Of a stretch of DNA of 64,000 nucleotides, positions 9,751 to 60,853 are shown in pieces. The notes under the pieces are model-generated. The model searched no databases and was not told the origin of the DNA. It saw nothing but the letters and a program-made list of their open reading frames with translations. Source of the stretch: Eledone cirrhosa (taxonomy: Eukaryota); contig OZ024740.1 in NCBI GenBank assembly GCA_964016885.1, forward strand, positions 233,492,001 through 233,556,000, in the 5' to 3' direction. Numbering within the stretch: the first letter of the stretch is position 1; every line of letters starts with the position of its first letter. Made by a program: the position numbers and the translations under genes.

Positions 9751-9938
9751 ATAACGAAGGAAATGTGGTAAGGAACCAGGTGGACCATAACGCACCAAAG
9801 TACTCAATACTTAGGGTAGTAGAGTGGGTAATAGGAACGAGTAGGACTCCGACGGCTGAGCTCAAGCCGTTTCGACGGCTAATTCTGGAGCCGTCGAAAC
9901 GGCTTGAGCTCAGCCGTCGGGGTCCTACTCGTTCCTAT
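9751..9938. mobile_element. Family A fold-back element (PLE pLTR-like) in (TA)n
   Basis: AACGAAGGAAATGTGGTAAGGAACC tail followed by an inverted repeat centred near 9885. Related copies at 15303, 16511, 21054, 23440, 42247, 42507, 48133, 48692, 52785, 60527 and 60742. Confidence 0.85.
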
Positions 9939-10005
9939 ATATATATATATATATATATATATATATATATATATATATATATATATATATATATATATAT
10001 ATTCT

Positions 10006-10155
10006 ATTCTAGGGCGGGTAAAATTCCCGAGATCCTTGGACGAGTTCTCTCAAGCGGTCTCTGTCCCTCATTATCGCTGCCATGTCCTGCGTCTCCAACA
10101 GACCAGTGTCTGTCCTTAGGGCATCAACATACGTTAACCTTGGTCTTCCTCTTCA
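10006..10155 (-). mobile_element. RTE-clade LINE 3' end fragment
   Basis: Reverse complement of 19235-19378; encodes [34 protein letters not shown]. Confidence 0.75.
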
Positions 10156-10399
10156 TTCGTATGAAATCATCAGGAATATATTTGTGTATTCTGTAACTAA
10201 AGTTTCCTGTTAAAAATTAAAGTACCCAATACCCAAGTGTAGTGTAAATATATATATTGGTATAGTCAATGTAAGTACTAATAGATTGTCATCAGACGAT
10301 ACATATGCCTTCTGTTGAACAGTCAATGACTTGTTAAATATATGATAGTGATCTATATAAGTGTATTTGTTAAACCTCCGTCGGTTCCAACGACGGTTT

Positions 10400-10640
10400 T
10401 CCCTATTTATTCGATCAATCGACAGCTTGCTCGTGAAATCAATGTGCACCATCAACTTAATTCCCAGCGAGATTCAGCTTAATAAATCTGACCCTTTTAA
10501 ATACAGGTGTAACTCTTTTTTTTATGACAGAAGTAATATGAAATAAAGTATCTTGCTCAAAAACACAACGTGTCGCGGGTAATCGAAATCCTAACCTTAT
10601 GATCGGGTTCGAACACACCTAACAACTAAGCCACACACGC
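10400..10640 (-). mobile_element. tRNA-derived SINE (degenerate)
   Basis: GTGTGGCTTAGTTGTTAG head, TTCGATT B-box-like motif and TTGAGCAAGATACTTTATTTC core; similar copies at about 18355-18665, 40270-40500 and 63110-63350. Confidence 0.55.
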
Positions 10641-11407
10641 ATTAAATTTAACATTTCTTTGTCCACAGACCTCTCCTTTAATATATAGAAATTCCACGTA
10701 CTTATACAATATATAACATTTATTTGTTGAGCTCATAACACTTAACTGAATTGTAGGCACACGCTTGTGACAAACACGGTTATAACAAACATGAGCATTT
10801 ATATCTGGCAGATTCCATTCCCCGTAGGTTTGACCACAGCCAATTTTTTCCTCCGTAGGTGAGGGCAAGCAAAAATATACAGAGTTTGAATAACAGAAAT
10901 AAAACTACCTAAGTGTTGGACTAGCAATGCGAAATGACGAAAGAAAAAGTCAATCTCGACAAGCTTTGAACGCAGAACACAGAGAAACGGAACAGATAGT
11001 GCAAAATATGTTATTAGATGCTCTAACTAATCTGCTAATACATCACCTTAAAATAAATAGTTTGAAAATTCCTCTGAAAAAGAAAAGAACACGATCGTAA
11101 AATATATTGAATCATTTTTGTCAGAACAGTCCACCAACGGATAAATTGGATTCTGGATTTTAACGTGTAAGAAATAACAACTAGATTTCCCTCTCACTAT
11201 ATTAAAAACAGGGTTAAGAAAAATAAACGGCTAGTGTAGTCAGAGATGCAAAATGTCTTATGTAAAAAGAATTGAACATATTTATTAATAGGTCTGGTCG
11301 ACCAGTGCTAAATTGAGGATAGACAATTATAACAATACTTGCAGCAGCAGTTAATCTATAACGGATTTCACTCTGAAAATATATTCTAAGATTACAATGA
11401 AGTGAAA

Positions 11408-11882
11408 CTACTACTACTACTACTACTACTACTACTACTGATGATGATGCTGCTGCTGCTGTTTCTGTTCCTGTTGCTGCTGCTGTTGCTGCTGCTGCCT
11501 CTGTGATGATGGTGTTGCTATAGTGTATCGTCTACAAACAAAACAAGATATCTTAGGAGCAACCCACCACAACAATAACCTACCACTAAGCCAAAGACCA
11601 GCACTTCCACTTCCATGACACCTCCCACGTTGCGGCTAGTAACGCTGTTTCTTCTTCTTCTTCTTCTTCTTCTTCTTCTTCTTCTTCTTCTTCTTCTTCT
11701 TCTTCATCAACATCATCATCATCATCGTCATCATCATCATCATCATCATCACCGCCACCACCACCACCACCACCACCACCATCACCAGCATTATCATGAT
11801 GATGATGATGATGATCATCATCATCATCATCATCATCATCATCATCATCATCATCCTCATCATCATCATCATCATCATCATC
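11408..11882. repeat. Cluster of trinucleotide microsatellites (CTA, GCT, CTT, CAT, CAC, GAT)
   Basis: Direct read; source of the poly-Leu/poly-His pseudo-ORF. Confidence 0.9.
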
Positions 11883-57307: not shown

Positions 57308-57350
57308 ACTGACGATCGTTTCATTTTAGCCCAAGGCCGGATTCATCGGA
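57308..57350 (-). ncRNA. Degenerate hammerhead
   Basis: CCGATGA-...-GAAACGATCGTC. Confidence 0.4.
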
Positions 57351-57416
57351 TTTTATATATATATATATATATATATATATATATATATATATATATATAT
57401 ATATATATATATATAT

Positions 57417-57850
57417 GTAGATAAATCTACCAAGAGTTTACGGTAGTGTCCAATCCGTATGAAGAACTCAATGTATTCCGGATATCATGGAAAGAAGAGA
57501 TGCAATGAAAAATCACTTTCGGTGAAAGATAAACGGAATACAGAGTCAAGATAAAATATTAAACAAATAATGAATAAAACAATGAAACAGTTCCTTATAT
57601 TAAACAAAAAAAGTTCATTATTTAACGATCGTTTCATTATTTCTGAAGACGGCATATATGTGTGTTTGGTATGTAAATTTAATCTTGATAGTTTGTATAA
57701 TTTTGTATAATTTTGTACATAGATCTGTTGAATATGCATGCCAATTCTAACACATATATATCCTAGAAACGATCGTTAAATAATGAACTTTTTTTGTTTA
57801 ATATAAGGAACTGTTTCATTGTTTTATTCATTATTTGTTTAATATTTTAT
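57417..57850. mobile_element. Fold-back element with long-stem-II hammerhead
   Basis: Inverted repeat 57551-57635/57766-57850; CTGAAGA at 57643 and GAAACGATCGTT at 57766; related copy at 14728-14920. Confidence 0.75.
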
Positions 57851-57898
57851 ATATATATATATATATATATATATATATATATATATATATATATATAT

Positions 57899-59072
57899 AC
57901 CACTTACCAAGATTAACAGCCATTTTTTCAAATCACAGTGTAGTCCCCAGCATAGGAATGGTGGAGAGTGTTAGCTGCGAATCTTTCCTAGCCCACTGAA
58001 CTAATAGAGATGACTAACAAAACGACCGTGAAGTCCTTAAACATTATTGAACTTCAGCCATATTGCCACAGATAGTATATATATATATATATATATATAT
58101 ATATATATATATATATATATATATATATATATATATATATATATATATATATATATAATATGTAGTTATTTTACATCGAGCTATTGTCATAATTGTAACT
58201 TGGTAATATTTATTACTGTCTACCATATACATACATATATATATATATATATATATATATATATATATATATATATATATATATATATATATGTGTGTGT
58301 GTGTGTGTGTGTGTGTGTGTGTGTGTGTGTGTATATATACATATATATAGTAAGGTGTATTATTGGTTGTGTCAAACGGTCCAATAAACCTTTGTTACCA
58401 ATATTAAGTTCTCCACGCTTTTGTATATCTCCAGTTCCATTTATGGGAACAGCTAGTTGATGTAAAGCGGAGTATTTATATCAAAATAAAGATCCGAAGA
58501 CACGTACTCACTCACACTAATTGTGACCGACCGAAATTCTACAGATTTGATGTTGAGGTTAGACCTGTCCAGGATCGTTTACAGCTATTGAGAGATTTAT
58601 GACCCTGACTGAAGACAATAGCAGTTGGCGTGTTTTGGCTGCTGAATCTTCATATGGGGAACAAAACTCTAGTGAGTGAACATCGTTAGTTTTTCCTCCC
58701 TCATATCAAAGATTTGAAGACATTTTATTATTCACCTGATGAGATCAGTGATAATCGATCATGACCACACGATCGATCTATCTCTTATTGAAACATGTGT
58801 CGTGATTAAAATGATTGGAAATGTATACCATGCCTTCGGATCATTATTTTGATATATATATATATATATATATATATATATATATATATATACTATCTGT
58901 GGCAATATGGCTGAAGTTCAATAATGTTTAAAGACTTCACGGTCGTTTTGTTAGTCATCTCTATTAGTTCAGTGGGCTAGGAAAGATTCGCAGCTAACAC
59001 TCTCCACCATTCCTATGCTGGGGACTACACTGTGATTTGAAAAAAAATGGCTGTTAATCTTGGCAAGTGGTA
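57899..59072. repeat. ~180-bp inverted duplication flanking (TA)n tracts and a nested element
   Basis: 57899-58077 is the reverse complement of 58891-59072 with few differences. Confidence 0.9.
58732..58805 (+). ncRNA. Canonical type I hammerhead ribozyme
   Basis: TCAC-CTGATGA-(stem II with TCGATC/GATCGA)-GAAAC ATGT GTC-GTGA; GUC cleavage triplet. Confidence 0.85.
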
Positions 59073-60526
59073 TGACCGTGTAGTGGCTCCCGTCTTTACT
59101 ATTTTCCACGATAATTTGTGATATTTAGTTGCAACTAACCAAGTTCTTATTTTAAATCCTGTCTGTGTTATCTTTATTTTACATCTCTCTTGTGTCGATA
59201 AATTATGTACCTGTCATTTACTGATATATTCAATCACATATACATTCTACTAATGTTAGAATTAGAGTTACACATTAGTAGAAAGATAAAAATAATCTGT
59301 AACTAATAAAATCTACATGTTGTTACTTAGCCCAAGGTCAGACCTGATCAAGCAGAACTATGGAAAAGGTTATCCAGCCATGATCATCCCGATCATCCAT
59401 GTCTTAGGTTGTATTATCCAATGTGACCTTTTTTTTAAAGAAGTAGTGTTATTTGAAGAAATGTGGGCTGCTATTTCTGAAATCTACACGGAATGGTAAA
59501 TTCTGTTACTTGTAGTGTAGATTTAAATCTAACTTTCTAAATGAAACGTGTAGAGGGTGTGTATCCGAGATAATGTAGGCCTCGATACATTGTACTTTAA
59601 CAACGAGGAGATGATCTCTTCATGAACAGTAATGAGCAAATTTCTGCTGAAAAATTACGAAGAATGTTCTCTATATATCTATATCCACCTTCTCTCTCTC
59701 GCTATATATAATCTTTTCTTCACGAACACTCGCACGAGTGAAACGATTAGCTCTGAATATGAGCGGACACAATGACACGTATGGAAGTTGCTGTATGCAG
59801 ACTGAACAAGCGGATTGGTTACATGAAATGAATCAATAGGAAGACTGCAAGCATTCAAGCTGTTCACCAATCAACAGCTTAGTGAGGGAGAGCTGTAATC
59901 CGTGTTCGCCTATAATGGAGAGTGTCGAACGGGGATTGCTTATTTGAGGCATTCATACAAAGATGGGTCTGTGACACAGTTGTAGATGAAAAGCCCTGGG
60001 AAAAGCAGCAAGCAGCACCAATGACACTACAACGTATATGTTTCTTACACCCATTCTCCTTACTCTCGCTCTCTCTCTATCTCTCTCTCTCTCTCTCTCT
60101 CTCTCTCTCTCTCTCTCTCTCTCTCTCTCTCTCTCTCTCTCTCTATCTCGCCCCCCTCTCTCTCTTACTGCTCTCTCTCTCTCTCTTTCTTTCTCTTTCT
60201 TTTCCTCTCTCTTTCCCTTTCCTTCTTCCTACCTCCGTCAATACGATCTTATTCTTTTGGCAGCATGTGTACACAAAACAAGAATATATAATATACGAAA
60301 ACAAGAAAAAGAAATTGATGTAAAATTATAGGATAAAGCAACTGGTCTGCTATGGCCATCCCGCCCAGTAACTACATGCCTAAAATATGAGAGGAAGCAA
60401 ACAAAAAGAAATCTGTAATTACATAATCCACACAGCACACAGACACACACACACACACCCACACATACACACACACACACACACACACACATACACACAT
60501 ATATATATATTTATATATATATATAT

Positions 60527-60853
60527 ATAGGTAAATGTTCAAGACCCCGACGGCAGAGCTCAAGCCGTTATGACGGCTATTTATGGACTCAGTCCAGAAA
60601 TAGCCGTCGAAACGGCTTGAGCTCTGCCGGTGGGGTCTTGAACATTTTTCCTATTACCCACTCTACTACCCTAAGTATTGAGTACTCTGGTGCGTTATGG
60701 TCCATCTGGTTCCTTAACCACACTTCCTTCGTTATATATATATAACGAAGGAAATGTGGTAAGGAACCAGGTGGACCATAACGCACCAAAGTACTCAATA
60801 CTTAGGGTAGTAGAGTGGGTAATAGGAATGAGTAAGACCCCGAGTAAGACCTA
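60527..60853. mobile_element. Two family A copies, tail-to-tail across a short (TA)n
   Basis: 60527-60734 (fold-back) and 60742-60853. Confidence 0.8.

Follow-up and report, generated by a model that had tools for sequence, protein, structure and literature searches.

What a retroelement is doing between two runs of (TA)n as a pair of inverted arms, only one of which carries the complete tail, is the question raised by a stretch of 64,000 nucleotides (nt) from the Eledone cirrhosa genome (contig OZ024740.1, positions 233,492,001 to 233,556,000 of the forward strand; hereafter the window), part of a 3.0-Gb, (TA)n-rich eukaryotic assembly. An earlier note had named eleven such fold-back elements in the window and proposed that the shorter arm stops where the element's own sequence reads TAT, each strand of a cut (TA)n target having primed reverse transcription. 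Our analysis points to Penelope-like elements (PLEs) that probably insert by twin target-primed reverse transcription, with both target strands priming at two fixed internal sites of one RNA.

Arms and ends in the window were located by self-BLAST and by direct reading of the junctions. In nine of the eleven named elements inverted arms indeed lie between (TA)n runs and the short arm ends at a TAT-containing word of the long arm. The family A copies at 9751, 48133 and 48692 all read TTCC/TAT/TACCC at the short end (slashes enclose the overlap with the target, here 3 nt), and the copy at 60527, whose arms differ by a one-base indel, has the identical site. The other families each have a word of their own: TTG/TATAT/CT at 31019 (5 nt), AATAA/ATAT/TTG at 33402 (4 nt, read by eye), ACA/ATAT/CGG at 34771 (4 nt), TTT/TAT/CTTG at 57417 (3 nt) and, in the large PLE, CTC/TATA/ACC (4 nt), preceded by extra CT units. 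The two exceptions belong to family A: at 21054 both end types are present and the long arm stops within the tail, leaving no inverted repeat, and 42247 ends at the family A site, yet its own long arm reads CAT there. The named elements are as follows, with a strand only where one was assigned.

43375-47751, plus strand: insertion of the large, apparently Neptune-like PLE, with the inverted, tail-bearing arm on the left and the open reading frame (ORF) on the tail-less right arm (long-left/short-right type)
43375-43410, minus strand: its 36-nt tail, restricted to the inverted arm
43410-44580, minus strand: its inverted arm, 97.6% identical to 46566-47746
44559-46343, plus strand: its 5'-truncated ORF of reverse transcriptase (RT) plus GIY-YIG type, a 594-amino-acid (aa) open frame (777 aa in full copies)
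9754-9935: fold-back of family A, an apparently Hydra-like PLE, tail left, short end TTCC/TAT right
21056-21168: family A unit without palindrome, its part-tail arm and its short-end arm being non-overlapping
42249-42424: family A fold-back, CAT in its own long arm at the site
48136-48242: family A fold-back with very short arms
48695-48874: family A fold-back
60530-60732: family A fold-back, short end left, tail right
31022-31676: family F03 fold-back with a tail of 90 nt and a hammerhead-like core at 31490; read-through copies have a Hydra-like ORF
33405-33641: family F07 fold-back
34775-35110: family F01 fold-back, 57-nt tail
57417-57847: family F27 fold-back, 137-nt tail

To judge by their sequences, the elements with a linked ORF are all PLEs, and the notion that the junction rule spans unrelated families therefore did not survive. 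Partial tandems forming pseudo-long terminal repeats (pLTRs), an inverted truncated copy and a tail at one end, of 36-137 nt here, are PLE features found in these elements. The large PLE matches RVT_1 (PF00078); a GIY-YIG domain gave no Pfam match in it, and the words NLIY..YIG were read from its translation. One copy (L134) has DKG, GLKF, a cysteine linker of CX2-5CxxC type and two His in the endonuclease, features of Neptune/Nematis, and we take Neptune rather than Nematis to be the fitting label. Its ORF gave exact matches to 150 aa at no fewer than 105 places, and the family is therefore young. Family A, the pLTR end of an autonomous element that appears Hydra-like, has a protein without a Pfam match; its frame holds VIY..YIG and YRDD words, and some members among its atlas neighbours carry GIY-YIG and RVT_1. 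Tandem copies at L013 and L031 have a long frame, and that of L031 (SDKTG, RWR, CNLC-SEE, LLN..CKH) agrees with the description of the Hydra clade in section 11 of PMC8557442: DKT, an RWK-like word, no GxKF/Y, no CCHH, and CxxC and CxH around E and N. The Hydra linker CxCX5C reads CNC-PDGSI-F in this single copy, the third Cys being absent. F03 (31019) and F07 (33402) also run into Hydra-like frames; no ORF was linked to F01 (34771) or F27 (57417). Hammerhead-like CTGANGA..GAAA cores were found by pattern in F03 (31490) and F01 (L039), and inspection by eye gave a non-canonical core in family A; among the Rfam matches listed there was no hammerhead, an Rfam scan of the whole window returned microsatellite noise alone, and a PDB search gave no match.

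Whether short ends are tied to the target beyond the named elements was read from a grid sample of 92 stretches of 10 kb at round-number positions (920 kb), scanned for arms that are bounded by (TA)n and mirrored internally. Of 96 events, 86 had arms of at least 25 nt and were kept and 10 were dropped; 72 of those kept were asymmetric and 14 rows (9 unique) symmetric. The element sequence past the short end overlapped the target by at least 3 nt in 51 of the 72 asymmetric events and in 27 of their 40 clusters, against 5.2 clusters expected when the end was moved along each element's own sequence (maximum 16 in 100,000 simulations). TAT was the majority word in 25 of the 40 clusters against 4.0 expected, bearing out the predicted enrichment, and the result was unchanged under coarser clustering (26 clusters, with AT-rich families over-merged). 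The overlap spans 0-8 nt and is not always TAT (TAT 16, ATAT 13, TATA 6, TATAT 5, ATATA 4, ATA 2, longer words 5, below 3 nt 21). Because TAT far outnumbers ATA among these words, they suggest a primer that ends in ATA.

The end of the tail turned out to be a site of the same kind. Tandem (read-through) copies show the element sequence past the tail, and there the distal site reads TAT in family A (7 copies) and ATATATA in the large PLE (15 copies); TAT-containing words also occur in F03, F05, F07, F15, F27 and F39, giving a distal overlap with TAT in 8 of the 10 families read through (the low-complexity tails of F11 and F34, which produced junk matches, were ignored). The asymmetry of the arms thus stands as originally described, but the tail end that had been taken as complete is itself an internal start site. 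The family A stretch contains four TATs, of which the first and the last are seen as ends and the two others, in the tail, are not, so TAT is not sufficient; nor is it universal. The overlap supports microhomology at the second priming event, but not as a free choice among TATs: each family uses one fixed site.

The two kinds of end are strictly paired. For the young, large PLE we assembled 41 stretches (40 by ORF match, plus the window); one lacked the seed and 15 an inverted end, and in the remaining 25, where an inverted left and a direct right end are both in view, there was one end of each kind every time. Seventeen were short-left/long-right, 8 long-left/short-right and none alike (Fisher P 9e-7). 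In the 8 long-left/short-right insertions the ORF sits on the tail-less arm and the tail on the inverted arm. Family A gave one of each in 17 of 17 pairs from stretches not picked for that family (3 with an incomplete tail) and F01 in 10 of 10, so that like-like pairs number 0 of 52 over the three counted sets. Many copies show a single recognisable end.

The arms within one insertion have 26 minor alleles in common and diverge by 0.22%, compared with 0.70% between insertions, and of 20 differences within pairs none recurs in two or more other insertions; the shared alleles and low divergence therefore indicate the same template or the same source locus. In L001-L030 one position is T in the long arm, which was the one selected by the query, and C in most partner short arms; a later mutation in the selected arm would be the simplest reading. 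Inner junctions vary: in 26 rows, 13 overlap by 1-9 nt, 4 are blunt and the others contain filler or lie in a microsatellite. That of the large PLE in the window is a 4-nt overlap, CACA, around 44577-44580.

Two F01 insertions at targets other than (TA)n (L206 and L294) are each flanked by a 12-bp duplication. The short end of L206 joins at ATA, and that of L294 is displaced by 4 nt, to a place where it matches the target over 6 nt; what the two cases show is that no (TA)n run need be added. A search of the compared stretches with the flanks from 25 insertions of the large PLE turned up no usable empty site. Separately, the insertions at L272:1095-1804, L173 and L186 are flanked by inverted copies of one sequence from outside the element (in L272 of 271 bp, at 97%; in L173 and L186 of approximately 75-130 bp), which could be tail-to-tail neighbours of one family or a duplication made during insertion. 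At the short ends of the young PLE the number of CT units ranges from 1 to 19 and exceeds 2 in 19 of 32, whereas internal copies have 2 in 48 of 48, and we read this stutter as slippage at the initiation of synthesis.

A second signal accompanies the overlap. In 18 of 40 clusters, against 2.4 expected, RCTC follows shortly past the short end; it also stands past several distal sites. The first GAGY downstream is complementary to it in 14 of 15 cases (11 A-U, 3 G-C), and of 5 tails 4 have the RCUC/GAGY pair in their minimum-energy fold. On the inner side, family A long arms stop 52-62 nt upstream of the proximal site in 20 of 28 rows, with 3 going beyond (the lower bound was biased by the query), which suggests an RNA 5' end or a block. 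A cap-derived extra C was sought after the stop word, and 142 contexts gave C 20, G 22 and T 6. A-rich filler resembling untemplated addition lies past the inner stop in L241, L245 and L003, and two lone family A arms in the window (16513-16651 and 52780-52837), without a partner arm, have an inner end that meets (TA)n near the common stop.

Taken together, the fixed ends, the one-of-each pairing, the excess of overlap, the shared alleles and the two target duplications are best accounted for by priming from both target strands, one of the two routes proposed in the earlier note. The RT-endonuclease would cut (TA)n in a staggered fashion, and each target 3' end, probably ...ATA-OH, would base-pair for 2-5 nt at one of the two sites, with a word rich in UA there; an RNA stem directly 3' of the site, which many Hydra-like families have as RCUC/GAGY, would help to set the position. 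The two 3' ends would be extended on one RNA: the distal complementary DNA (cDNA) would copy the tail and then continue through the stretch also copied by the proximal cDNA, and both would stop independently, the truncated cDNAs being joined head to head via short overlaps, blunt ends or filler.

Several observations weigh against this scheme. Overlap falls below 3 nt in 21 of 72 grid events, so that an end at an internal TAT holds for the excess and not for every event; the 40 clusters are mutually related and hence not fully independent, which overstates the P value. The distal site of family B reads TA alone (4 rows), and that of F01 shows no overlap in its sole read-through copy; among 31 further loci, 18 have AT by our count. 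As to pairing, the grid gave 9 unique symmetric events, of which at most 7 are symmetric units of other families (the remaining 2 being TA runs inside arms), one short-short pair occurs among 30 pairs in family A top-hit loci, and L031 and L027 contain more symmetric or tail-tail rows. Target duplication was found in only 2 of 31 F01 loci and in 0 of 20 family A loci examined (46 fetched), where many flanks resemble later insertions. The RCUC/GAGY pair is absent from the large PLE, from the proximal site of F01 and from the minimum-energy fold of family A, and most z-scores are weak. Gene conversion could also have produced the shared alleles, as could polishing of the assembly or a pair of transcripts from one locus. 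Contigs aligned over 47600-48090 (four sets) skip the repeat at the junction, and no read spans any junction.

The alternative that survives best, though we consider it unlikely, is a hairpin DNA intermediate, formed by self-priming or fold-back, that the element's AT-preferring endonuclease cuts in a staggered fashion at two TA-rich sites before joining to the target; the TAT words would then be cut sites instead of primer-pairing sites. One-of-each ends and shared alleles arise naturally from such a molecule, and its elements have precedents in the self-priming proposed in PMC3846280 and the endonuclease resolution of the tail in PMC8557442. It sits poorly with units that lack any stem (21054 and several similar), with the short end of L294 shifted to a target match, with CT stutter confined to short ends, and with the target-primed starts at both tail ends described in vitro in PMC11167929.

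Marginally less probable again is that each target strand is primed on its own template, either two RNAs of one source locus or the two pLTRs within a single tandem transcript, the use of different sites being imposed by an asymmetric dimer. No strand displacement would be needed over a shared stretch of up to ~2.4 kb, tandem copies are common (15 of 40 stretches), shared alleles are expected as well, and the family A copy L011 has arms resembling different subfamilies; yet the absence of like-like pairs calls for an extra rule, and the common stop of family A long arms fits one RNA 5' end or block. Very improbable is the simple snap-back that had been offered alongside twin priming, in which a single cDNA, begun at the end of the tail, would fold back, serve as its own template and switch to the target where an internal TAT occurs: it suits the TAT at the short end and the 17 insertions whose tail-bearing arm is the long one, but it fails for the other 8 of 25, because copying back either strand cannot put the ORF on the tail-less arm and the tail on the inverted one, and it explains neither stem-less units such as 21054 nor why other TATs of the tail go unused. 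That an assembly or library artefact, or later loss of one tail by microhomology with (TA)n, produced these structures is scarcely credible, even though read-level confirmation of the junctions is lacking and palindromes trouble assemblies (PMC8557442), since each family has fixed ends but variable inner junctions with filler, point changes separate the arms, target duplications are present, and tail deletion would use other TATs and leave tail-tail pairs.

The window holds further fold-backs and related units, again without assigned strand.

34587-34746: family B (F02) fold-back, absent from the original eleven, overlap just 2 nt (AT)
23437-23630: older family A-like fold-back, short end left
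42509-42672: family A-like unit, part tail and short end
15304-15491: family A-like unit, tail left, short end right

A 220-bp inverted pair of a separate family (57897-58116 and 58852-59073, 98% identity) surrounds (TA)n, with a TAT overlap (3 nt) at one end. Elements of the same family often stand tail to tail over one short (TA)n run (60530-60851, L013, L009), which suggests that such elements insert repeatedly into one another's flanks. In the young PLE, the 3' untranslated region holds a compound (CA)/(TA) microsatellite of ~600 bp (43890-44500 and 46640-47270) that moves with the element and differs in length among copies. ORF fragments of non-LTR retrotransposons with zf-RVT matches lie at 12583-14154 (plus strand), where microsatellites separate the fragment from upstream sequence, and at 56760-57293 (minus strand), and self-BLAST revealed tandem arrays at 752-1761 and 25278-26318 (a 23-bp period; a degenerate CAC/ACC-rich array).

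Twin priming at two sites of one RNA may extend to a more specific scheme, which we put forward tentatively, at somewhat below even chances: the two-site reaction would be obligate, with a dimeric enzyme holding one RNA whose two internal templates are marked by structure, and with telomerase-style alignment on UA words that sometimes reiterates repeats before elongation. If true, the tail, the inverted pLTR and the (TA)n bias would be explained in one step, and PLEs would be a source of palindromes and of compound (CT)n(AT)n microsatellites. With 72 asymmetric units per 920 kb the elements are abundant, and the mechanism would therefore shape the genome's palindromes and microsatellite borders. 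PMC8557442 names the origin of PLE tails and inverted repeats as a question still to be answered, and in PMC11167929 what follows initiation is not validated. Exact predictions for the existing in vitro system of the latter can be drawn from the one-of-each pairing, from the overlap at either site and from the stem by the start.

Set against published PLEs, what we describe is a known structure (PLE tail and inverted pLTR) with new mechanistic evidence. The inverted, 5'-truncated copy, the often one-ended tail, the (TA)n bias and the partial tandems all have counterparts in the sections of PMC8557442 and PMC3846280 devoted to these features, where an inverted pLTR and a one-sided tail of 30-40 bp are reported, the tail is called optional and it is ascribed to endonuclease resolution or self-priming. 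The elements here differ from those accounts in having one end of each kind in 52 of 52 counted pairs, tails of 36-137 nt that often exceed those 30-40 bp, and ends that overlap the target. The Poseidon PLE PAc of Anolis comes closest: in vitro both target strands are cleaved and extended, two internal starts bound the tail, a stem-loop lies at the start and a dimer is predicted (PMC11167929). Use of both strands, two internal sites bounding the tail and a stem at the start are common to PAc and our elements; unlike the PAc starts, which the corresponding part of that paper gives as non-homologous to the target and not strand-specific, with no pairing of starts per insertion reported there, ours come from two other clades and show 2-7 nt overlaps and strict pairing. 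The junction rule is thus not wholly undescribed, as had been supposed: the asymmetry corresponds to the PLE tail and the two internal starts were seen in vitro, while the pairing rule, the target overlap and the RCUC/GAGY pairing were unreported for PLEs in a literature search that did not reach older PLE papers of 2004-2006 or supplementary figures.

L1 twin or dual priming is alike in that two target ends prime on RNA and an inverted piece comes to lie inside a target duplication, but it combines poly(A) with a variable internal site, and the parts of PMC2837659 and bioRxiv 10.1101/2024.08.27.596794 that treat it give cDNA overlaps as a minority (17%), with a median of 22 bp. The L1-type pattern was not found here: both PLE sites are fixed and internal, and arm overlap of tens to thousands of bases is usual.

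Telomerase aligns its primer by short primer-template pairing with reiterated copying, and PLE reverse transcriptases are its sister group. Primer alignment on a short internal template would mechanistically link the two. Template slippage at the 3' repeats of long interspersed nuclear elements (LINEs), as discussed for UnaL2 in the relevant portion of PMC3747384, likewise begins with a brief pairing of primer and template and with repeated copying. The young PLE differs from UnaL2 and telomerase in that the reiteration would take place at an internal site with just two CT units, to judge by its genomic copies.

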